Positions 26,095 through 61,065 of a stretch of 64,000 nucleotides of DNA are shown piece by piece. This DNA is from an uncultured Actinomycetota bacterium. Its GTDB lineage: Bacteria > Actinomycetota > Humimicrobiia > Humimicrobiales > Humimicrobiaceae. The translations under genes and the position numbers were made by a program. The DNA lies in the NCBI GenBank assembly GCA_964616545.1, contig CAZTUA010000012.1:18185-82184 (forward strand), given 5' to 3'. The notes under the pieces were generated by a model. The model was given only the letters and a program-made list of their open reading frames with translations, was not told the origin of the DNA and made no database searches. How positions within the stretch are numbered: position 1 is the stretch's first letter; the number at the start of each line of letters is the position of its first letter.

Positions 26095-28506
26095 ATGAAG
26101 TATGGTTATTTTAATGACAGAGATAAGGAGTATGTTATTACAAATCCCAGAACACCGGTTAAGTGGATTAATTACATTGGAACCCTGGATTTTGGCGGTT
26201 TTGTGGACCATACAGGCGGCGCATTAATCTGTAAAGGTGACCCGACCTTAAACCGTATTGTAAAATATATACAGCAGATGCCATCCTCGGAATTTAAAGG
26301 TGAGACTCTATACCTGCGGTTCAGGCAGGAGGATGGTTATAAAGTGTTTTCGCCTTTCTTTGTTCCCACACTGGATCCATATGATTTGTATGAATGTCAT
26401 GTAGGTCTTGGTTATAGTCGCATAATATCAGAATTTTACGGACTACGGACAGAGTGCACAATATTTGTCCCCATAAATGACGGAATAGAAATACGCGAGG
26501 TAAAAATAACCAATAAGACAGGAAAAGAGCTGGATATTGATGCAATATGTGTCGTTGAGTATTCACACTTTAATGCCGTGAGACAGTTTGATAATGCTGA
26601 CTGGGCCCCCCAGACGATGCAATCCGAATGCATAAGAGAAAAAGACGGGCTGCTGACCCTGACGCAATATGCTTTTATGCGAAGAGAAACCAATATAAAT
26701 TTTCTAACATCCAATCATCCGGTCTCTTCTTTTGAATCGGACAGGAAACGATTTCTCGGAGACAATGAATACGGAAGCTGGGCAAACCCGCTCTCACTCC
26801 AGAAGGATGAGCTGGAAAGTTATGAAGCACGCAGGGGTGATAATGTAGGCATACTGATGCACCATCTCGGGAACTTTAAGCCGGGAGAAGAAAAAAGTTT
26901 CATTGCTCAGCTGGGGCAGGAGCAGAGTTTTAAAAAGGCATATCCTGTTATTGAAAAATATAGAAAACCTGAATCTATAAAAAGTGCGCTGGGTGAAATT
27001 AAAAGTTTCTGGGATGAATTTTTATCTATAATGCAGGTACAAACACCGGACCCGAATATGAACAGTATGTTAAATATCCAGAATCCCAGGCAGTGTTTTA
27101 TCACCAAGAACTGGTCACGCTATCTTTCATATTACCAGCTTGGACTGGGTACCCGCGGCATTGGTACCCGCGACACTTCGCAGGATATTATGGGGGTAAT
27201 AAGTCACATCCCCCGGGATGCAAAGGAACTGTTAAAAAAGCTTATGATGGTTCAGAGAAAAAATGGGAGTGCCATGCACGGCTTTAATCCTTTAAGCATG
27301 GAAGCATCAACAGGAGAGACTTATGAAATGCCGGACCGCCCGCAGTATTATGGAGATGACCATCTCTGGATCGTTCTTGCAGTAACTGCATATTTAAAAG
27401 AAACGGGAAATATGGATTTTCTAAATGAAGAGATTCCCTATTACGAGAAGAACAGGGAAGGGAAACCCGAAGAGAGCGGGACGGTAATGGATCACATGAA
27501 GAGAGCACTTGATTTTACTAAAAATGATAAAGGAAATCATGGCCTGCCGCTTCTGGGTTTTGCAGACTGGAACGATACTGTTAATTTAAGGACAGGAGCG
27601 GAATCATTATTTAATACACACCTTTATGGAAAAGGGCTTCTTGAGATGATTGAACTCTGTAAATATGCAGGTGATGAAGAATTGGCCGGGGTTTATCAGC
27701 AAGAATATAACAGTGTAAAAGAGGTGTTTAACCGGATATGCTGGGATGGCGAATGGTATATCCGGTATTTTGATTCCGACGGCACCCCGCTCGGTTCACA
27801 AAAAAATGAGCAGGGAAAAATATACTTGAATGCCCAATCCTGGGCAGTAATATCGCGGATGGCTACCGGTAATAGGGCAGAAAAAGCACTGGATTCCGTG
27901 AACAGGTTACTAAACACTTCCAGGGGGATAAAAATTAGCTGGCCCGGTTTCAATGGCTATGACCCTACAAAAGGCGGCATTACCACTTACCCTCCAGGAA
28001 CCAAGGAGAACGGCGGAATATTTTTGCATACCAATCCCTGGGCAGTAATTGCCGAAACCATAATGGGGAATGGCGACCGTGCATACGAGTATTATAATCA
28101 GATAAATCCGGCTGCAAAAAATGATATTATATACGAGTATGAATGCGAGCCCTATGTTTATGCCCAGAATATACTCAGTGACGAGCATCCTCAGTTTGGC
28201 CTCGGGAGAAATAGCTGGTTAACAGGTGCAGCTTCATGGATGTACCAGGCGGGAACAGAGTTCGTGCTGGGTATACGGCCTGCATACCGCGGTCTTGAAA
28301 TCGACCCCTGTATTCCCGGAGAATGGAGCGGTTTTAAAGTCATGCGGAAGTTTAGAAATGCGGTGTATGATATAGAAGTAAAGAACCCGCAGAATGTTAA
28401 CAGGGGAATATCAGTCATTAAAGTGGACGGCGGGGAAATAACCGGCAACATAGTTCCTGTTTTTAAAGACGGCGGCACCCACTCAGTGGAAGTGGTAATG
28501 GGCTAG
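26095..28506 (+). CDS. GH94 glycoside phosphorylase (cellobiose/chitobiose phosphorylase family)
   Basis: MKYGYF..REYVI-type N-terminus, GTRDTSQD, ADWND catalytic motif, ENGGIF, SWLTGAA. Confidence 0.92.
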   Translation: MKYGYFNDRDKEYVITNPRTPVKWINYIGTLDFGGFVDHTGGALICKGDPTLNRIVKYIQQMPSSEFKGETLYLRFRQEDGYKVFSPFFVPTLDPYDLYECHVGLGYSRIISEFYGLRTECTIFVPINDGIEIREVKITNKTGKELDIDAICVVEYSHFNAVRQFDNADWAPQTMQSECIREKDGLLTLTQYAFMRRETNINFLTSNHPVSSFESDRKRFLGDNEYGSWANPLSLQKDELESYEARRGDNVGILMHHLGNFKPGEEKSFIAQLGQEQSFKKAYPVIEKYRKPESIKSALGEIKSFWDEFLSIMQVQTPDPNMNSMLNIQNPRQCFITKNWSRYLSYYQLGLGTRGIGTRDTSQDIMGVISHIPRDAKELLKKLMMVQRKNGSAMHGFNPLSMEASTGETYEMPDRPQYYGDDHLWIVLAVTAYLKETGNMDFLNEEIPYYEKNREGKPEESGTVMDHMKRALDFTKNDKGNHGLPLLGFADWNDTVNLRTGAESLFNTHLYGKGLLEMIELCKYAGDEELAGVYQQEYNSVKEVFNRICWDGEWYIRYFDSDGTPLGSQKNEQGKIYLNAQSWAVISRMATGNRAEKALDSVNRLLNTSRGIKISWPGFNGYDPTKGGITTYPPGTKENGGIFLHTNPWAVIAETIMGNGDRAYEYYNQINPAAKNDIIYEYECEPYVYAQNILSDEHPQFGLGRNSWLTGAASWMYQAGTEFVLGIRPAYRGLEIDPCIPGEWSGFKVMRKFRNAVYDIEVKNPQNVNRGISVIKVDGGEITGNIVPVFKDGGTHSVEVVMG

Positions 28507-28745: not shown

Positions 28746-29153
28746 ATGCCGGAAGAATCTATAGCTGCTTATTTTAATAACATCTTGGCTCTTACAACTT
28801 TTATTCTGGTTCTGGCATTTATATTTTCCCTGATATTTCTTATATCACGTATATTAACGGGCCGGAAAAAGCCCGGAAGTGGTAATTTCGGCGGTATTGA
28901 GGTAGAAGAAGCTGCACGGTTTGATAAACGGAATGTCATATCTGATTATAAAGAGGATCCCAACCGGCAGAAAAATATTTTTATTCTGGCAATTATTTTT
29001 ATAATAATAATTTATTTTATATTGCTTGCTCTCTGTATTTTTAATTTTAGCAGAAATCCTTCGGCAAATTTAAATCTATTTTTAATTGTTGGAATAATAT
29101 TTCACCTTATATTAATTACAATATACGTTATCAGATCTAAAATTATAGGTTAG
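28746..29153 (+). CDS. NuoA-like subunit (highly diverged)
   Basis: Three TM helices with a long first loop; first gene before nuoB; YECG loop motif absent. Confidence 0.65.
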   Translation: MPEESIAAYFNNILALTTFILVLAFIFSLIFLISRILTGRKKPGSGNFGGIEVEEAARFDKRNVISDYKEDPNRQKNIFILAIIFIIIIYFILLALCIFNFSRNPSANLNLFLIVGIIFHLILITIYVIRSKIIG

Positions 29154-29164
29154 GGGTTAATTGA

Positions 29165-29560
29165 ATGCCTTTTAATAACAGGAGCAATTTAAATATAATG
29201 GTTACGGGGTTTGGCTGCTGTAAACAGGAAATATTTGCGGCACAGGGAGCACTTTATGATATCCAGAGGTTTGGTATAAATTTTGTCAGTACACCTGAAG
29301 ATGCTGACCTGCTGGTCGTTCAGGGCTTCTATAATAAAGAGGGTATAATCAGGGTTATAAATATTTATGAAAAGATGAACCACCCAAAAGGAATAATTGC
29401 AGTAGGAAGCTGTGTTTTAAACCGGAACTTACTTGATCCAAAAAGTGAATTAATGGACAGATTCAGAGACAGCGTAAAAATAATCATGCATGTACCGGGA
29501 TGTCCGCCACGGCCCGAAGCATTTATGTATGCAGTGTTAAGAATTCTAAATGAAAATTAA
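29165..29560 (+). CDS. nuoB: NuoB-like Fe-S (N2) subunit
   Basis: GCC tandem Cys, DIQRFG, ADLLVVQG, AVGSC, VPGCPPRPEA. Confidence 0.88.
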   Translation: MPFNNRSNLNIMVTGFGCCKQEIFAAQGALYDIQRFGINFVSTPEDADLLVVQGFYNKEGIIRVINIYEKMNHPKGIIAVGSCVLNRNLLDPKSELMDRFRDSVKIIMHVPGCPPRPEAFMYAVLRILNEN

Positions 29561-29605
29561 AGGCAGCATAATAGGAACAAAAATGAAATTTAAATATTAA
29601 TAAAA

Positions 29606-31105
29606 ATGATTGATGATATTTATAATAAAATCTATCCTTCATCCAGGTCTGTATATGGGGAAGAAATAGAAAGGAACCTGGAGTATATTCTGAGGGATGA
29701 GATAAAAAAAATTTCCCGAATAGGCTTCGATTTACTGGTAGAGATATCGCCGGAGAGACTTTATACGGTTATAGAGAAGCTGAAAGAAAACTCACAGCTT
29801 GAGATAAATAATTTTCATGGAATTAATACTTATAAAAATGAAAAAGGACGTTTTTTGCTGATTAACCTGAAATCAGCTACGGGCGATATATCTGTTCTGT
29901 TAAAAATGGAAGTGTCGGATGAAGAGCCGGGAAAAAACTATAAAGAATCCATAGACATCTTAAAAAAATTTTATAAGGCTTCAGCTTTTTATGGACCTGT
30001 GGAGAAAATAGCCACCGGTAATTACAATATCAGAATTACACCCGGGATCCTTGACGGCCTGGACTGTTTTGACCTGAATATTTATGCGGAAGAGGATGAA
30101 GTTAAAGATGCCCATATTAATACAGGTATAAGCAGGATTGCGGATGATGAATTTTATAAGGATATGAGCATTCATAATCTTATAGCTTATATAAGCAGAT
30201 TTGACTGGAAGGCCGGCGTGTTTCCTGAAGTCTGCCTTTGCAGTGCCTTTGAAAAATTACTGCAATTGAAGTTGCCCGGGAAAGCTCAGTACACAAGGAT
30301 GCTCCTCTGCGAATTATATAGAGTATCTAACCATATTTATTTTATTTCAAATATATGCAATATTCTACAGTATGATATTGCATATAATCTCTGCCTTCTG
30401 GAGAGAGAAAAGATTCTAAGAATTATAGAAACAATTACAGGCTCCAGAGTTGCCCCTAATTTTATAAGAATAGGTGGAGTGCGCAGGGATATAGAAGGAG
30501 AGGTAATATCAGGAATAAGGAAAAAACTTCCGCTTATATTTAAAAATATAAACAGGATAGAAAAAATAATGATGAATGACCCCCTTGTAATCGAGAGACT
30601 GAAGGATACAGGAACAGTACCTAAAGAAATTGCTCTGGAGTATGGAGTAACCGGGCCCAATCTCAGGGCTTCTGGAATCAGGTATGACCTGCGGAAAGAT
30701 AAAGACTTTATTTCATATAAAGACCTGTCATTTCTTGTACCTGTGGGAAGAGTGGGAGATTGCCTGGACAGGGTTCTTGTCAGGTTTATTGAAATTTTCC
30801 AGTCTCTTAAATTAATAAACCAGATTACCAGTAACTTTCCGCGGGGAGCACATATAAAAAAAATAAACCTGTCTAATCTGGAGTTCCGGCCGGAAATAAT
30901 TTCTCAGGATATTGAATGCCCGCATGGAATTTTTAAAATTTACATGGAAGTGGGCAAAAGAAACATAGAGTCGCTTGTGATAAAAGGTCCGTCTATAAGC
31001 AGTCTTATCCTTGGAGAAGAAATAATTAAAGGCAGCAGCATAGAAGATGTTGAATTGATTTTAATGAGCCTTGATATAAGCCCGGGAGAAATAATAAGTA
31101 CATAA
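29606..31105 (+). CDS. NuoC/NuoD-like fusion (diverged, no NiFe motifs)
   Basis: ELYRVSNH, ITGSR...IRIGGV, YGVTGPNLRASG..YDLRK, GDCLDR, SLDISPGE; short NuoC-like N-terminus. Confidence 0.85.
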   Translation: MIDDIYNKIYPSSRSVYGEEIERNLEYILRDEIKKISRIGFDLLVEISPERLYTVIEKLKENSQLEINNFHGINTYKNEKGRFLLINLKSATGDISVLLKMEVSDEEPGKNYKESIDILKKFYKASAFYGPVEKIATGNYNIRITPGILDGLDCFDLNIYAEEDEVKDAHINTGISRIADDEFYKDMSIHNLIAYISRFDWKAGVFPEVCLCSAFEKLLQLKLPGKAQYTRMLLCELYRVSNHIYFISNICNILQYDIAYNLCLLEREKILRIIETITGSRVAPNFIRIGGVRRDIEGEVISGIRKKLPLIFKNINRIEKIMMNDPLVIERLKDTGTVPKEIALEYGVTGPNLRASGIRYDLRKDKDFISYKDLSFLVPVGRVGDCLDRVLVRFIEIFQSLKLINQITSNFPRGAHIKKINLSNLEFRPEIISQDIECPHGIFKIYMEVGKRNIESLVIKGPSISSLILGEEIIKGSSIEDVELILMSLDISPGEIIST

Positions 31106-31115
31106 AAGGATACCA

Positions 31116-32051
31116 GTGTTAATTATATTAAGAAAAATTATTTATATTTTAATAATATTAGCCCTGAATTTGTATTTGTACGAGTATATAAGCAACAAAT
31201 TCACTGCCCGGATGGAGCTGAGAAGGGGCTACAGGGTAACAAGAGCAGCAGGTATAGGATTTCCGATGATTAGATTTTTTAAATTCATTTCTACTGACAG
31301 CAAAATCACCGCATGGACGTTTTTTATCTTTTTGCTTTCTTTTCTTATGTGGAGTACTGTTCCGCTGACTCCGAACCTGATTCTGGTTGAAAGCGATAGC
31401 AGCCTTTTAATTGCAGTTTCTTTGTATATAGGGCTTACAAGTGTATTGATTTTTAATTCAGCGGGGTCTTCTTACAGGATAATCTTCAGTGAAACAGTTA
31501 AAAAATTGATGATTATATTATCCTTTATGGTTCCCTTATTGCTGGGTATTGTAAGTATTGTTCTGGTAAATAAAACATTGAGCTTAAGGGAGATTGTAGA
31601 CTCCCAGTATAAATACTGGAACATAATATTGCAGCCGCTGGGGTTCTTTACGGTTTTTGCATCAACATTATTTCAATTGAAGCTTCTGGGCATGAGCAGG
31701 AAAAATTATATATCAACCGGAGCTTATACAGGCAGGGAAGGGAAAGGATTTGTTAAAGCAATTGAAAAACTTCCGGCTTATATGATTGTTTTTTTCTTAA
31801 TTATAATTATGAATATTCTTTATCTTGGAGGATGGCAGGACCTTTATATAATACGGGGCGAGATAATGCTTGCGGTAAAATTTTATTTTATCTTTTTTAT
31901 ATTATTATTGATGGATAAAATTATCTGCAGAATTGATAATTATAAAATGCTGGTAAAAATTAACTGGAAATTTTTAATTCCGGTTTCACTTGTAAATTTT
32001 ATAATAACACTCGGGTTTTTCGTGATGAGAGACATTTATAATTTAGTTTAA
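31116..32051 (+). CDS. NuoH-like membrane subunit (diverged)
   Basis: KFTARMELRRG, LSLREIVDSQ..WNIILQPLGF, YLGGW, WKFLIPVSLVN. Confidence 0.82.
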   Translation: MLIILRKIIYILIILALNLYLYEYISNKFTARMELRRGYRVTRAAGIGFPMIRFFKFISTDSKITAWTFFIFLLSFLMWSTVPLTPNLILVESDSSLLIAVSLYIGLTSVLIFNSAGSSYRIIFSETVKKLMIILSFMVPLLLGIVSIVLVNKTLSLREIVDSQYKYWNIILQPLGFFTVFASTLFQLKLLGMSRKNYISTGAYTGREGKGFVKAIEKLPAYMIVFFLIIIMNILYLGGWQDLYIIRGEIMLAVKFYFIFFILLLMDKIICRIDNYKMLVKINWKFLIPVSLVNFIITLGFFVMRDIYNLV

Positions 32052-32078
32052 ATTTTATTATCAGGGTATCTATTAAAA

Positions 32079-32501
32079 ATGTTAAGGATTATAAAAAACT
32101 TTTTTATTGTTCTGGGGAATATGTTCAGGAAACCCAGAACCGTCGTTTACCCAAAAGAAAAAATAATAATTCCTGAAGGAAGCAGAGGGGTAATACATTT
32201 AAAACTGGACCCCGACTCGCTGGATATTATTTGCAATGCATGCGGGCTCTGCAGTAAAATTTGTCCACAGAATTGCATAGAGGTTAAGAAGAGGGTGGAG
32301 AGAAGCGGCAAAGTAATTCTTGAAGATTTTATTCTGGATTTAAACAAATGTATTTTTTGCGGCAATTGTGTTGAATTTTGTGATTTTAATGCAATAGATA
32401 TGTCATACCAGTACCAGCTGGCAGACTTCAGGAGGAAAAATTTAAAATTGGGGAAAAATGAATTAATAAAACCATCAAGCACGATAAGAGATTTCTGGTA
32501 A
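32079..32501 (+). CDS. nuoI: NuoI-like 2x[4Fe-4S] subunit
   Basis: TVVYP, CNACGLCSKICP and CIFCGNCVEFC. Confidence 0.9.
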   Translation: MLRIIKNFFIVLGNMFRKPRTVVYPKEKIIIPEGSRGVIHLKLDPDSLDIICNACGLCSKICPQNCIEVKKRVERSGKVILEDFILDLNKCIFCGNCVEFCDFNAIDMSYQYQLADFRRKNLKLGKNELIKPSSTIRDFW

Positions 32502-32508
32502 AATAAAT

Positions 32509-33051
32509 ATGTCATACGGAAGTCAGTTGACAACAATAATAATACACTATACAGGCATTACAGGCTTGATGCTGTGCAGTCTGCTCTCCCTTTTTCTGGC
32601 CAATAAAAAAAAGAAAATGCTGTTTTTGTTCCTTTCATTTATATTCGGGGGAATACTGTATTTCGTAAATTACTCCGGTATCCTGGTTTTTATAATTGGG
32701 ATTATAATGATATTCTTTTTTATATTGCTATATTTGTTTGTTTTCCAGCTGGAGCTTTTCGGAAATGATATAGAGGCTGGAACCGATAATAAGCCAGATC
32801 AATCAAAAAAGAAGGAAATCATTACCATAATTACAGCCCTTTTATTTTGTTCGGCTATCGGGTATTTCCTATATGTATACACATCCAGATTTTTAAGAGA
32901 TGCAGCAATAAACGAGAGTATCCTGATTACCACTCTGAGTGATATTAGCAGTCAGTTATCTGTTGATTACAGCCTGGTTATAATAATTCTGGCTGCTTCA
33001 TTATTTATATCATCTATATGGTTAATTATTATTAAAATGGAGAAAAAATGA
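32509..33051 (+). CDS. NuoJ-like membrane subunit (diverged)
   Basis: Five TM segments, position between nuoI and nuoK, ILLYLFVFQL segment. Confidence 0.65.
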   Translation: MSYGSQLTTIIIHYTGITGLMLCSLLSLFLANKKKKMLFLFLSFIFGGILYFVNYSGILVFIIGIIMIFFFILLYLFVFQLELFGNDIEAGTDNKPDQSKKKEIITIITALLFCSAIGYFLYVYTSRFLRDAAINESILITTLSDISSQLSVDYSLVIIILAASLFISSIWLIIIKMEKK

Positions 33052-33395
33052 ATTTTCAGTTAATTATATATATTAATCTTTTATTTTTTTTAATGGGAAT
33101 TTTCGGACTCCTGTATAGCAGGAATATTATATCAGTATTTGTTTCCCTGCAATTTATTATAATTTCAGCCATCCTGAATTTTTTAAGTTTTTCAAGGTTT
33201 CTCTACCAGCGGTTGTTATGGGATAAGATATTTATAATTGTAGGAGTTACGGTTATATATTTTATAATGTTTTGCCTTATTTATTATATTTATTCAAAAA
33301 GGGATCTCCCGGACAGGAAAATTTTTTACAGAGACTTTAAAATATTCAGAATGACAGTAAGCGATTGGTGGGGCGAGGACAGGGATAATTTTTAA
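33048..33395 (+). CDS. NuoK-like membrane subunit (diverged)
   Basis: GIFGLLYSRNIISVFVSLQ...LNFLSFSRF; ATGA overlap with the upstream gene. Confidence 0.75.
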   Translation: MNFQLIIYINLLFFLMGIFGLLYSRNIISVFVSLQFIIISAILNFLSFSRFLYQRLLWDKIFIIVGVTVIYFIMFCLIYYIYSKRDLPDRKIFYRDFKIFRMTVSDWWGEDRDNF

Positions 33396-33396
33396 A

Positions 33397-34887
33397 ATGG
33401 ACTTTCTATTATATATTAATGAAAAAATAAACCCTTTTCAGAGCATAGCTATATTAGCAATTGCAATTCTTATTCTGTCATTTTTTGCGATTTCTAAAAG
33501 CAGAACCGTAAAAATATGTCTTATAACGATGGTTTCGCTTTTACTTGCGCTGGCCTTTTTCCTGAATATCTATGCTTATATTTCCCGCGGTAATTTTTCT
33601 AATTTCCTCCTGTTTTTTGGGAATGTCCAGATGGTAATGGCAGGTATCATGATATTCTGTGCATTGAATCTGTTATTTTTTATCTACATTTATCATAAAG
33701 ATAATGATAATTTTATTAAAATACTAATGATTTTTATATTTTCTGTTATCTGTGCTTTATTTGTAATTATAAGCAGAAATTTTCTTTTGATATTTACGAG
33801 TCTTTCTCTATTTATATTAACTGTATTCCAGCTGGTGTCGGCTTTTAATTCAAAGAATGATAAAACCGGTATATATGTACTTGAATATTTTCTGAGGCCG
33901 TTAATAACTATTATCTTATTTTTTTTCGCTTTTTCATTGCTTCTGGGCGCAACCGATTTCAAGGATTTCAACCAGATTTTACAGTCAGAATATATTACAA
34001 ACCCGCTGACTGTTTTGAGCCTGGTTGTTTTTGGAGTTGCTCTTTATCAGTATTTTTTCCTGTTCCCCTTTCAGGGTCCGTATATAAAAATGCTTAAAAG
34101 AAGCGACCCTGCAGCCAATGCAGCTGTATGGTTCTTATATTTCCCTGTCGGCATATTTATGTTTCTGAAACTGAGTAGCGTATATAATTATTTTACAGAA
34201 AAAAGCAATGCATACCTCTCAGTTTTTTTAATAATTATAACCTTCGTCTGCCTGGCTGCAGGAAATATCGGGGCAATTAAAACGAAAAGTGTGAGAAGAA
34301 TAATATCATTTTTATTTTTATTTTTTATTGGCTTCTTTTTACTCAATGTTTCAATGTTTTCTGCCGGAATTATAACCAGGTTTTTAATGGATTTATTTAA
34401 TTTTATAAATATCTTTCTGATATTGTTCAGTTTTATGCCTTTATACAGTATTTTTAGCACTATCGAAAAACAAACGGGGACTGATCATATAAGAGGAATA
34501 AAAGGGCTGGGAAGGATTAATAAATATGCAGGTGTAAACTTAATAATAATATTTATACCGTGGACTGTATTTATTTATCATATAGAACCTTTTATAAAAT
34601 ATTTTAATGCTGATTTTTTACAGATGGGAGCATTGAATATGGCTTTATTGATACTAATAATGGCTGCCCTGATATTTCTCTTATTGAATATAACCAGGAT
34701 TATTATACAGATTTTTAAAAAACCGGCAGCAGAGACTGTGCAAAAAGCAGTTCTTCCCAGGTTTTTATATATTTACATTACTTTTTATTCCTTTATTATA
34801 ATAGTTGCCGTAGTTCTGGGTATCCTTAGAATAATAAATATTGATGTACCTTTTACCGGTTTTATGATAGAAGAGTTTAATTTTTAA
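33397..34887 (+). CDS. NuoN-like antiporter-type subunit (diverged)
   Basis: 496 aa, about 14 TM segments, LLLGATDF, FPFQ, GNIGAIKTKSVRRIISF, IKGLGR. Confidence 0.78.
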   Translation: MDFLLYINEKINPFQSIAILAIAILILSFFAISKSRTVKICLITMVSLLLALAFFLNIYAYISRGNFSNFLLFFGNVQMVMAGIMIFCALNLLFFIYIYHKDNDNFIKILMIFIFSVICALFVIISRNFLLIFTSLSLFILTVFQLVSAFNSKNDKTGIYVLEYFLRPLITIILFFFAFSLLLGATDFKDFNQILQSEYITNPLTVLSLVVFGVALYQYFFLFPFQGPYIKMLKRSDPAANAAVWFLYFPVGIFMFLKLSSVYNYFTEKSNAYLSVFLIIITFVCLAAGNIGAIKTKSVRRIISFLFLFFIGFFLLNVSMFSAGIITRFLMDLFNFINIFLILFSFMPLYSIFSTIEKQTGTDHIRGIKGLGRINKYAGVNLIIIFIPWTVFIYHIEPFIKYFNADFLQMGALNMALLILIMAALIFLLLNITRIIIQIFKKPAAETVQKAVLPRFLYIYITFYSFIIIVAVVLGILRIINIDVPFTGFMIEEFNF

Positions 34888-35935: not shown

Positions 35936-36937
35936 ATGTCAAAAGAACTAAAAATAAGTCTTTACAAAAAGGCAATAATTATAATTATTGCCTTTTTAAT
36001 CTTAATCTCATCTCCGGTTATTTTACCAGGGAAAGTGCATGCTATAACCTTAAAAGAGCTTGGTAATTCAATCGCGCGGTTGAGCCAGGATGAAGAAAAT
36101 TTACTGGAAGAAATACTTGCCTCTGAAGCCGAAGTTGAAAATAAAAGGAACAAACTCCAGTCATTAAACGAGGAGTTTCAGATACTTGAGATAGAGCTTA
36201 ATAAGCTTAATGAAATCAGGGAAGAATTGATGGTAAGTATTGAGAGTAAAAAGGATGACCTCAGGGAAAAAATTATTTTTTCATACAAGTATGCAAATGA
36301 TGACATTGCAAATCTTATAATTACTGCCGGGAATTTGAATGAAGTTATAAACAATCTCTATATTTTTAAAAGTATCATGGAAAGCCAGGCGGACCTGATT
36401 GAGCAGCTACGTTTTGAAAAAGAAGAATATGACAGAATCTCCCGGAAATCTGAGGAAAAGAAGAAAGAAATTGAAGAGACCAGAGATATAATTGAGGAAG
36501 AGGAAAAGCTGCTTCTAAAGAGCATTGAGGAAAACAAAATTCTTCTTGAAAGGGTAAAAAGCGAAAAAGGGGAGATTCAGGGGCTCTTAAGCGAAATAAA
36601 AAAAAGAATAGCAATGGTTCAGCCCCCCGGGCTTACCCTGACGGGAGAATGGGATATGGTTGCTACGGCATACTATGCTCACGGAAAGGGCGGCAATGAT
36701 ATAAATGGCAACGGTATAACGGCGATAGGACTTAGAGCGAGAAAAGGAATAGTTGCCGTTGACCCCAGGGTTATTCCTCTGGGAACAAAACTTTATATAC
36801 CCGGTTATGGAGAAGCGCTGGCAGCAGATACCGGCGGGTGGATAAAGGGAAATAGGATTGACCTATGTTTTGAAACTCTGCCGGAATGTTACAGATATGG
36901 CAGAAGGAAGATAAAAATATATCTTGTTGAAAAATAA
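35936..36937 (+). CDS. Secreted coiled-coil + 3D-domain peptidoglycan-associated protein
   Basis: Signal peptide, long coiled coil, ATAY...VAVDPRVIPLGT...AADTGG.IKGNRIDL. Confidence 0.9.
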   Translation: MSKELKISLYKKAIIIIIAFLILISSPVILPGKVHAITLKELGNSIARLSQDEENLLEEILASEAEVENKRNKLQSLNEEFQILEIELNKLNEIREELMVSIESKKDDLREKIIFSYKYANDDIANLIITAGNLNEVINNLYIFKSIMESQADLIEQLRFEKEEYDRISRKSEEKKKEIEETRDIIEEEEKLLLKSIEENKILLERVKSEKGEIQGLLSEIKKRIAMVQPPGLTLTGEWDMVATAYYAHGKGGNDINGNGITAIGLRARKGIVAVDPRVIPLGTKLYIPGYGEALAADTGGWIKGNRIDLCFETLPECYRYGRRKIKIYLVEK

Positions 36938-36968: not shown

Positions 36969-37604
36969 TCAGACCATTTTTAAAAATTTAGAAAGAGATT
37001 CAAAATCATTTAAAAATTTTTCTTCACTTATGGCATTACTTACAGCAATATCCTGCGGGTCATAGAATGGAACCAGCTTGAAGGATGGATTTTCAAATAT
37101 CTTCATATGTAATTTTTTTATATCCCTGTATTTCTTTTCTACTGAAAAATATTTCTCAAGGATAATATTTGATGAATCAAGACCCATGGAAACAATTATA
37201 TGGGGTGTGATTATTGAAATTTCTTCGGTCAGGTATGTAATGCAATTGTTAATATGTTTTTTCAGGGGTTTTTTTTCAACTTTGGATGGTTTCTTACCTT
37301 CTTTTGATGATATTCCGGGTGAGCATTTGATAAGAGAAGTAATATAGGTATCCCTGACAAGAGATAATCCTGTTCTCTCAAATATTTTTATTATAAGCTC
37401 ACTCTGATTAAAAACTCCCGGGGAAGCCTTTTTGCCTCCAGGCTTATTCATAAGCGGAAAAGTGCTGACAATCATTATGTTAGCTTTGGACGCACCTTTA
37501 CCCGAAACGGGCCTGCTTCCGGCTTTTACCAGATCCAGGCACTTTTTACAGCTAATAACTTCCCTGTCTAGTTTATTTAAGCTCTCTCTGGCACTTATTG
37601 GCAT
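36969..37604 (-). CDS. Uracil-DNA glycosylase family 4/5-like Fe-S protein, catalytic motifs degenerate
   Basis: CKKC, IKCSP and NNC cysteines plus the UDG fold pattern; GEAPG reads STFP and HP reads DP. Confidence 0.75.
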   Translation of the reverse strand: MPISARESLNKLDREVISCKKCLDLVKAGSRPVSGKGASKANIMIVSTFPLMNKPGGKKASPGVFNQSELIIKIFERTGLSLVRDTYITSLIKCSPGISSKEGKKPSKVEKKPLKKHINNCITYLTEEISIITPHIIVSMGLDSSNIILEKYFSVEKKYRDIKKLHMKIFENPSFKLVPFYDPQDIAVSNAISEEKFLNDFESLSKFLKMV

Positions 37605-41343: not shown

Positions 41344-41360
41344 AATATTAAAAGTCATAA

Positions 41361-41480
41361 ATTTCCTCCCATCCAGACTATAACTGTCGGTCTTAGAATT
41401 ACACTAAGTCAGCCTGCCTGATGCTGGCAGGGTTGCGGACTTTTACCGCCGGTAAGGAATTTCACCTGTCCCCGAAAATT
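41361..41480 (-). ncRNA. FMN riboswitch (RFN element)
   Basis: Minus strand TTCGGGGACAGGTGAAATTCCTTACCGGCGGT...GACCGACAGTTATAGTCTGGATGGGAGGAAA, upstream of ribD. Confidence 0.95.
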
Positions 41481-41677
41481 TACTAATAAATTTTAAATTT
41501 TCAAACAACTTAAAAAATTGTATATAGAATATACTAAAAATATAACAAAATGCAAGTTTTTTCCGGGTATAATGTAAAATTTACCAGGCACATATAAAAT
41601 GTAAGTTTCTAAAAACATAAATTCACTTTAATTTTATGCTATAATCCATATTGAAATTAAAGAAGGGATAAAAGATT

Positions 41678-60752: not shown

Positions 60753-60828
60753 GCCGGTGTAGCTCAACTGGTAGAGCAGCTGATTTGTAATCAGCAGGTT
60801 GTCCGTTCAAGTCGGATCGCCGGCTCCA
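60753..60828 (+). tRNA. tRNA-Thr(TGT)
   Basis: Cloverleaf; GCTGA-TTTGTAA-TCAGC anticodon arm; GTTCAAGTC T-arm; encoded CCA. Confidence 0.96.
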
Positions 60829-60832
60829 TAGT

Positions 60833-60918
60833 GGAGGGATGCCCGAGTGGTTAAAGGGAGCAGACTGTAAATCTGCCGGCGAATGCCTACAGAGGTTCAA
60901 ATCCTCTTCCCTCCACCA
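60833..60918 (+). tRNA. tRNA-Tyr(GTA)
   Basis: GCAGA-CTGTAAA-TCTGC arm, long variable arm, encoded CCA. Confidence 0.96.
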
Positions 60919-60989
60919 TAATTTTTTTAAAGTTCTGTAATTATAAATGTCACAGGTATTTTTTACGGACCGGCCCGGGTATCAGTCAT

Positions 60990-61065
60990 GCCCGTGTAGC
61001 TCAGATGGTAGAGCATTTCCTCGGTAAGGAAAAGGTCATCGGTTCAAATCCGATCGCGGGCTCCA
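60990..61065 (+). tRNA. tRNA-Thr(GGT) with C at position 33
   Basis: TTTCC-TCGGTAA-GGAAA anticodon arm, ATCGG-TTCAAAT-CCGAT T-arm, encoded CCA. Confidence 0.9.

Follow-up and report, generated by a model that had tools for sequence, protein, structure and literature searches.

The 64,000-nucleotide stretch analyzed here (the window; contig CAZTUA010000012.1 of assembly GCA_964616545.1, from an uncultured Actinomycetota bacterium) carries an operon of eight nuo-like genes that encodes a strongly reduced relative of complex I, hereafter the mini operon. A sequence-only reading of the window had described it as a stripped, intact nuo operon that keeps its iron-sulfur (Fe-S) ligands, has lost catalytic residues elsewhere, fits none of the described classes of the superfamily and is maintained by selection. 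Here, these claims are followed up in the window's own genome and in its relatives, which are referred to as f1, the window's family, and f2 and f3, two other families of the Candidatus Humimicrobiales class that were searched.

Gene content and subunit folds of the mini operon

The mini operon consists of eight uninterrupted, closely packed open reading frames (ORFs) on the forward strand at positions 28746-34887, in the order A-B-CD-H-I-J-K-N and with spacings of -4 to 45 nucleotides (Table 1). An ATGA overlap joins nuoJ and nuoK and a 1-nucleotide gap separates nuoK from nuoN, just as had first been read from the sequence. Neither nuoE, nuoF and nuoG nor nuoL and nuoM lie within the eight-gene operon. 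A genome-wide search agrees with this reduced content: PF00361, the antiporter-like family, has 0 matches across the window's own genome (G000; 1.75 Mb in 57 contigs, 93.7% complete, 0.61% contamination), the sole match to PF00346, the family of the NuoD part, is the mini operon locus itself, and neither a UbiA-type prenyltransferase (PF01040) nor cytochrome bd was found in the same 93.7%-complete assembly. The genome encodes a pyruvate:ferredoxin oxidoreductase (PFOR; 1179 amino acids), Rnf, an FeFe hydrogenase and two NiFe large subunits. Absences in an incomplete genome fall short of proof, and the same pattern is seen across the genus: PF00361 is absent from 8 of the 11 other genus genomes, other antiporter-like genes being present in only 3 of the 11, and UbiA is absent from 9 of the 11, the remaining two having one match below the cut-off and one fragmentary match.

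By profile search, B, D, H, I and K are assigned to Nuo families in Pfam, above the domain cut-offs, and in NCBIfam, in agreement with the gene names first given to them. The families matched are Oxidored_q6/NuoB for B, Complex1_49kDa/NuoD for D, NADHdh/NuoH for H, NuoI for I and Oxidored_q2/NuoK for K. All NCBIfam scores lie under the curated cut-offs, for example 236 against 360 for NuoD and 34.9 against 332.6 for NuoN. Profile-profile comparison by hhalign aligns A with canonical NuoA (probability 94.9, E value 4e-8), which identifies A as a remote NuoA homolog. J gives a weak alignment with NuoJ (probability 60, E value 8e-5, 162 columns), and its position between I and K is kept in the family loci. 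The first ~135 residues of CD align with NuoC (probability 96.3, E value 1.7e-9, 85 columns), the conserved C-terminal half of NuoC being absent from the fused protein; the CD profile left its N-terminal 120 residues unaligned when searched against the PDB, and the link to NuoC comes from the profile-profile comparison only. The profile of the last gene matches a NuoN chain in the PDB (8e9g_N, E value 3e-17), which marks the gene as a true NuoN/ND2 homolog. An AlphaFold2 (AF2) model of the D part, with a predicted local distance difference test (pLDDT) value of 81.3, superposes on 49-kDa/NuoD chains with a Z score of 41 and a root mean square deviation of 2.1 Å over 353 residues. The model of the N-like subunit (pLDDT 76.6; predicted template modeling score, pTM, 0.80) reaches Foldseek template modeling scores of 0.72-0.76 to NdhB, NuoN and MrpD at 12-15% identity. 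On these profile and structure comparisons, the label A-B-CD-H-I-J-K-N is right, with C truncated and J weakly supported.

When K and the N-like subunit were predicted together as two chains from our own alignments, the score was 0.73, the best control reaching 0.00; 58 of 80 solved complexes attain that mark, as do 2 of 110 mismatched pairs. Contacts agreed to at least 92% between runs, with a partner pLDDT of at least 77. In the modeled interface, transmembrane helices (TM) 2 and 3 of K face residues 129-184 and 223-234 of N, and the K tail (residues 99-111) is in contact with loops of the N-like subunit. This pass may mirror likeness to solved NuoK-NuoN interfaces rather than prove binding of these copies.

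Table 1. Features of the window, with the eight operon genes first, followed by flanking and more distant features
Feature	Position	Strand	Evidence or remark
NuoA-like membrane subunit, 135 aa	28746..29153	+	no Pfam/NCBIfam match; hhalign
NuoB, 131 aa	29165..29560	+	PF01058 60.6 bits; NF005012 100 bits (cut-off 116)
Fused truncated NuoC (~1-135) + NuoD (~137-499)	29606..31105	+	PF00346 185.6 bits; hhalign; AF2 model
NuoH, 311 aa	31116..32051	+	PF00146 81.6 bits
NuoI, 140 aa, two complete CxxCxxCxxxC motifs	32079..32501	+	TIGR01971 108.9 bits (cut-off 113)
NuoJ-like membrane subunit, 180 aa	32509..33051	+	no family above cut-off; hhalign weak
NuoK, 115 aa	33048..33395	+	PF00420 28.5 bits
Single antiporter-like subunit, NuoN/ND2 type, 496 aa	33397..34887	+	TIGR01770 E 8.8e-9; PF00361 none
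DUF1287 protein, membrane-anchored, 259 aa	34917..35696	+	PF06940 118.7 bits; downstream neighbor
Glycoside hydrolase family 94 (GH94) gene (cellobiose/cellodextrin phosphorylase-type), directly upstream of operon	26095-28506		synteny kept in genus loci
3D-domain cell-wall-binding-like protein with coiled-coil N-terminus; family 4 uracil-DNA glycosylase	35936-36937 and 36969-37604	-	
Flavin mononucleotide (FMN) riboswitch	41357-41483	-	Rfam, 110 bits
Three tRNA genes	60753-61062	+	Rfam

The DUF1287 protein has a hydrophobic N-terminal anchor, and its gene follows the N-like gene in 8 of 9 complete family loci. It was considered as a further subunit, which is unlikely: the domain is probably extracellular, it has no sequence match in the PDB, and two unrelated genes intervene in f3. 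No Rfam family lies inside or adjoining the operon. Promoter-like sites (43 against 35.6 expected) and terminator-like sites (8 against 4.4) come from a scan that is uninformative in this AT-rich DNA.

Residues kept, replaced and gained

The proteins of the window were aligned with those of four other f1 members, with the f2 and f3 versions, and with two references: L031, a canonical 11-subunit operon from G019, a genome of the same family, and L032, the group 4 NiFe hydrogenase cluster from G013. Canonical positions, including H38 and Y87 of the NuoD quinone site, follow what we take to be the standard numbering. The ligand set of the Fe-S chain is complete. The ligands of cluster N2 in NuoB (C18, C19, C83 and C113) and those of N6a and N6b in NuoI (C52/55/58/62 and C91/94/97/101) are all retained in f1, f2 and f3, and the alignment thus bears out the 4 + 8 cluster cysteines that had been read from the window. 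The N2-side motifs of D are invariant, and NuoB is shorter than canonical NuoB by ~25 N-terminal residues.

The loss of catalytic residues elsewhere was also substantiated by comparison with the in-class canonical operon. The His of the quinone-site beta1-beta2 loop is absent from every mini-type D of f1, f2 and f3. The second quinone-site residue is a more mixed case: a loss of Tyr87 holds for the window's genus and nearest relatives, which have Trp (W201 in the window), and fails for most f1 members, which keep Tyr; f2 and f3 have Ala, Thr or Ser. In the membrane arm, the TM2 Glu of K is replaced by an invariant Gln35 in f1 and by Ser in f3, is still Glu in f2, and the TM3 Glu of K is lost in all mini types. 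NuoH of f1 has replacements of the TM5 Glu, of the acidic TM5-6 loop and of the Glu in the 'EF.N' motif, and its LGGW motif is retained. In A, the canonical YECG and FDVE motifs are absent and the acidic residues are replaced. The N-like subunit has Ser137 for the TM5 Glu, Tyr219 for the TM7 Lys and Phe249 for the TM8 Lys, and in the window's genus the TM12 segment G-x-x-G-x-x-G-F is deleted; its fold is retained and the Pro of the broken helix TM7 is invariant. The single N subunits of f2 and f3 retain the TM5 Glu and a TM7 Lys/Arg. The replacing residues are mostly polar and uncharged.

Other residues are new to the clade. Where canonical NuoD has E-A-P-K/R-G, mini-type D has E437-C438-P439-H440-G441, which is invariant except for a nearly invariant His; hydrogenases carry P-R-G where mini-type D has C-P-H-G. 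NuoI ends in (I/L)R(D/K/E)FW (window 32480-32498), a clade-specific extension found in all mini types, and NuoK has the f1-specific C-terminal tail SDWWGED (window 33340-33392). The operon is of Nuo type and not of hydrogenase type: PF00374, the NiFe family, has no match in the operon, and D is without CxxC at either NiFe motif when compared with an in-family NiFe large subunit. No maturation protease or hyp genes were found in the operon flanks, whereas the true group 4 cluster in G013 has HycI.

Distribution, selection and origin

The mini operon is a regular component of its family. CD is an open frame in all 24 other f1 genomes, at 38-74% identity, and the search with CD matched 38 of 41 relatives overall (a tally that counts the unpublished G032, a genome used for this figure only). 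Among f1 loci outside the genus, eight genes stand in order in 9 of 11, and at the genus level or near it, all eight are intact in 10 of 12; the two remaining loci in each set end at contig ends, and what looks like a break in G006 is a scaffold gap of 100 N. Searched by profile, the N-like subunit was found in 73 of 79 other f1 genomes, which represent all 17 genera, and the six genomes without it are 77-84% complete.

Selection was estimated with the Nei-Gojobori method (NG86) from codon alignments of 11-13 orthologs per gene, using pairs with a synonymous divergence (dS) of ~0.1-1.2. The ratio of nonsynonymous to synonymous divergence (dN/dS) lies between 0.09 and 0.33 across pairs of B, CD, H, I and N, with per-gene values of 0.12-0.22 for B, 0.12-0.19 for CD, 0.11-0.17 for H, 0.09-0.22 for I and 0.19-0.26 for N. 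Higher values were obtained for A (0.21-0.55), J (0.21-0.49) and K (0.15-0.48), whose maxima belong to the closest pair, in which substitutions are very few. In the flanks, DUF1287 yields 0.10-0.19 and GH94 fragments yield 0.07-0.46, and the overall ratio of ~0.1-0.3 for the operon resembles that of these neighbors. The mini operon is under purifying selection and is not decaying. The sequence-only reading had preferred selection to decay, which it expected to show as a dN/dS near 1 together with frameshifts in relatives; what was found instead are intact frames and low ratios.

The operon is no isolated case: a single-antiporter architecture is common to all three families searched, of which the two sister families are less degenerate and keep some pump residues. 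The f3 operon reads A-B-D-H-I-J-K plus one N (PF00361, 72 bits), and the f2 operon reads A-B-C-D-H-I-J-K, again with a single N (PF00361, 68 bits). A complete canonical nuoA-N operon stands directly upstream of the f2 mini operon on the same strand (L029:208-13555 and L028:267-9567, in G027 and G025), a tandem arrangement that suggests an origin by tandem duplication followed by the loss of L and M. Some f1 genomes, e.g., G019 and G013, have a canonical 11-subunit operon elsewhere. On the same contig in G013, a group 4 NiFe hydrogenase cluster whose membrane genes are Nuo-like (L032:12784-19476; N-J-K-A-B-C-D(NiFe)-H-I-HycI) adjoins the canonical nuo operon.

In a D tree of 82 rows rooted on the NiFe large subunit, the mini-type D proteins of f1, f2 and f3 form one clade, with a Shimodaira-Hasegawa-like approximate likelihood ratio test (SH-aLRT) value of 98, inside the NuoD radiation. 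In-class canonical D proteins stand apart from this clade and group with those of Dehalococcoidia and Acidimicrobiia. Two further contigs from the same phylum (L033 and L034, in G039 and G034) each have two NuoD-like genes ~15 kb apart, and one gene of each pair belongs to a separate deep branch of the D tree (support 99).

A wider search placed the mini clade in a larger context. The mini-type D profile, run against 1.84 billion representative proteins, gave 11,295 matches at E ≤ 1e-3, with a gap after about nine of them (346-520 bits against ≤324 bits). In a FastTree phylogeny of 171 rows, the mini clade comprises 14 of our own sequences and 9 representatives, and its sister (local support 96) comprises 26 unfused NuoD-like proteins of ~365-380 amino acids. 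The H38-equivalent His occurs in 0 of 25 alignable sister proteins, and the Tyr is kept in only 7 of 26. A metagenome scan for the sister group retrieved 40 loci (L130-L169). All 7 long loci that were inspected place the sister gene within an array of 11 genes, A to N, and in 5 of them a second nuoA-B-C(-D) set comes after this array, as judged by ORF sizes. In the two sister loci tested with Pfam, the first operon had weak or absent scores and the second had strong ones. The sister operons (e.g., L144:8629-20010 and L157:8667-21039) have weak or no Pfam matches for A, K and L. Sister K has Gln at both Glu positions; sister N has Gln for the TM5 Glu and for the TM7 Lys and Arg for the TM8 Lys, and it retains the TM12 Lys. 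Searches by tblastn found no sister-type L/M/N upstream of canonical nuoD in Verrucomicrobiota, Bdellovibrionota or other loci. From these comparisons, the mini operon belongs, as far as sequences tell, to a wider group of nuo paralogs whose membrane arms are neutralized and whose active sites are altered, and it is the branch in which reduction has gone furthest. The sister paralogs resemble it in the absent quinone His and the Gln replacements of K and N charges; they differ in that L, M and N are kept, C is unfused, the operon sits directly upstream of a canonical nuo operon, and D has S-P-R-G rather than C-P-H-G.

Relation to known complexes and possible function

The claim that the operon fits none of Nuo/Fpo, Ech/Mbh and Ehr is borne out by comparison with the parts of the published descriptions that were available: all of its subunits are Nuo-type, and PF00374 is missing. 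Complex I-like enzymes of 11 subunits retain L, M and N and produce menaquinol, according to the account available for Desulfitobacterium hafniense (PMC11238625). As portrayed there, they share with the mini operon a Nuo-type subunit set, the same gene order, the lack of an N-module, three Fe-S clusters in I and B, and a donor that may be ferredoxin. On the ferredoxin or F420H2 donor of Fpo and other ferredoxin-dependent 11-subunit complexes, the indirect signs here are the PFOR of the genome and the clade-specific extension at the C-terminus of NuoI. The mini operon differs from them in having no L or M, a truncated and fused C, a lost quinone His, neutralized pump residues, no quinone prenyltransferase found in the host and NCBIfam scores below the cut-offs. 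Against NDH-1 of 11 or 14 subunits more generally, it has the Fe-S ligands and lacks the core set, the quinone His/Tyr, the Glu/Lys chain and the family-level scores. The catalogued NUO11-14 variants include none without L and M in the accessible portion of that survey (PMC4758237), and a complete Nuo is described, in a source likewise available in part, for another member of the class (PMC7325909). No account of a naturally occurring nuo operon that lacks L and M, or of this lineage's operon, turned up in the full-text literature; supplements and subscription papers lie outside that search.

Ehr complexes are hydrogenase related and have several Mrp-like subunits, as outlined in the excerpts available (PMC6349859; bioRxiv 10.1101/765248). 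Like the mini complex, they are membrane complexes of the complex I superfamily without NiFe ligands, in anaerobes without full quinone pathways. By those same partial descriptions, the mini operon is unlike Ehr in that all its subunits, including A, J and K, are Nuo-type, and in its one degenerate antiporter-like subunit.

Ech, a ferredoxin-linked hydrogenase, combines a single antiporter-like subunit with NuoH-, B-, D- and I-like subunits; it carries CxxC motifs for NiFe and is not known to have NuoA/J/K, whereas the mini operon has no PF00374 match and no CxxC in D, and it has A, J and K. MBS/Mbx of Thermococcales is a complex I relative that lost NiFe, passes electrons from ferredoxin to a non-quinone acceptor, and retains an Mrp-type ion-translocating module together with hydrogenase-type subunits. 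The mini operon is likened to it by description, and a 6u8y chain is among the PDB matches. As judged by homology, the mini operon is a Nuo-derived member of the complex I superfamily that falls outside canonical Nuo, Ech and Ehr as these are defined.

What, then, might the mini complex do? The reading that we tentatively favor, without placing even odds on it, is a putative ferredoxin-fed membrane Fe-S oxidoreductase with a remodeled pocket, a non-quinone acceptor and no canonical pumping. It is preferred because the electron wire and the folds are kept, the quinone ligands and supply, the charge relay and two pump modules are missing, and the host has PFOR as a source of reduced ferredoxin and also Rnf. 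Such an enzyme would derive from an 11-subunit Nuo-type enzyme, its peripheral NuoI, NuoB and fused C/D carrying three [4Fe-4S] clusters (N6a, N6b and N2) and its membrane subunits H, A, J and K with one N-like subunit forming a folded, assembled anchor. Reduced ferredoxin, made by PFOR in a fermenter without quinone, or another low-potential donor would dock at NuoI, and electrons would pass from there to N2 in NuoB. They would then reach the remodeled B/D/H pocket, in which the quinone ligands are gone and Cys-Pro-His stands at the position of the hydrogenase 'PRG' arginine; this Cys/His motif may take part in handing electrons to an acceptor that is presumably not a quinone. Pumping by the canonical charge relay is unlikely, since Gln, Ser/Thr, Tyr or hydrophobic residues stand in for the buried Glu and Lys of K, H, A and N, and there is no L or M. 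Ion-coupled oxidation of ferredoxin would already be served in this host by Rnf.

Several observations weigh against this proposal. No gene for a donor or acceptor partner was found adjoining the operon. Most f1 members retain a Tyr at the Tyr87-equivalent position, 47 of 80 f1 genomes have a UbiA-family gene, and some members may use quinone. The polar replacements (Gln, Ser/Thr and Tyr) may leave some ion or proton conduction possible, and the single N of f2 and f3 still has its TM5 Glu and TM7 Lys/Arg. The placement of Cys-Pro-His at the former active site relies on what we take to be its homology to NiFe hydrogenases. The mini clade sits on long branches, and its placement may be affected by long-branch attraction, of which the tree program warned. 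Finally, in G041, the N-like gene (L129:7498-9031) lies in two frames, with a shift near residue 206/207 beside T-runs and a further problem near its start, while A to K and DUF1287 are intact; in this 7-contig assembly, the shift may reflect either a pseudogene, the N-like gene being dispensable there, or an indel error of assembly.

An alternative that we hold unlikely is an energy-conserving oxidoreductase that would pass electrons from ferredoxin to quinone or another lipophilic acceptor and move fewer ions per electron pair through H/A/J/K and one antiporter-like subunit, in the manner of Ech. The retained Tyr and the UbiA genes of the family speak for it, as do the NuoH protein, which is among the most constrained (dN/dS 0.11-0.17) in a way that fits a retained substrate tunnel, the invariant TM7 Pro of N, and the charges kept in f2 and f3, including the K TM2 Glu of f2. 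It has to contend with the lack of a detectable UbiA or cytochrome bd in the window's own 93.7%-complete genome and of the beta1-beta2 His in all mini-type D, with the replacement of all f1 carboxylates and lysines in K, H, A and N and the TM12 deletion of the genus, and with an operon that is present in 73 of 79 family genomes regardless of UbiA. The same losses at the quinone site and in the pump, and an acceptor that cannot be named, could instead point to the idea put forward in the sequence-only reading, a membrane-anchored Fe-S scaffold without turnover of its own that would sense redox state or let soluble redox enzymes such as hydrogenases or PFOR dock; soluble NiFe and FeFe hydrogenases are indeed encoded elsewhere in the genome. 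We give this idea a low probability as well: neither the operon nor its conserved flanks contain a signaling domain, a regulator or a gene for a partner, a sensor has no obvious need for eight constrained subunits including NuoH, and the conserved new Cys-Pro-His of the pocket looks more like a site of chemistry. A decaying nuo remnant on its way to loss would account for the very low curated-family scores, the missing L and M and the two frames in G041, and it is the least credible of the explanations. Frames are intact in 17 of 17 family genera at protein identities of 27-74%, dN/dS is about 0.1-0.3, new clade motifs are conserved, and so are gene order and translational coupling; decay was rejected on the intact frames, the low dN/dS and the near-universal presence in the family.

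A more speculative possibility is that the single-antiporter form of the three families searched and the divergent 11-subunit paralogs, which stand in tandem with canonical nuo operons of other bacteria, make up one unrecognized functional class of non-pumping, ferredoxin-fed membrane oxidoreductases with new chemistry at the former NiFe/quinone pocket, the mini operon being its extreme member. With similar reserve, such a class could be defined by a systematic replacement of charge-relay residues and quinone ligands, often Glu/Lys by Gln, with the Fe-S chain, folds and interfaces kept.

Among respiratory pumps, complex I is the largest and the one least understood, and its coupling mechanism is still debated on the basis of mutants with individual charged residues neutralized. 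The mini operon presents an enzyme, stably kept in nature, that has been stripped of two of its three pump modules and of essentially all relay charges and yet preserves the electron wire. Provided that expression succeeds, this compact (~2000 residues), tractable system could reveal the role that the peripheral-arm/heel module plays on its own, and which chemistry besides the reduction of quinone or protons the N2 pocket can support. Metabolic reconstruction is affected as well: automatic pipelines would credit these genomes with a 'partial complex I / NADH dehydrogenase', probably a mistaken label for a fermenter whose genome search turned up no quinone biosynthesis. In this small anaerobic actinobacterium, the Fe-S wire is kept under clear selection, whereas two pump subunits out of three are gone, as are the residues that bind quinone and almost all of the charged ones of the pump, so the mini complex probably does a different job from that of respiratory complex I.

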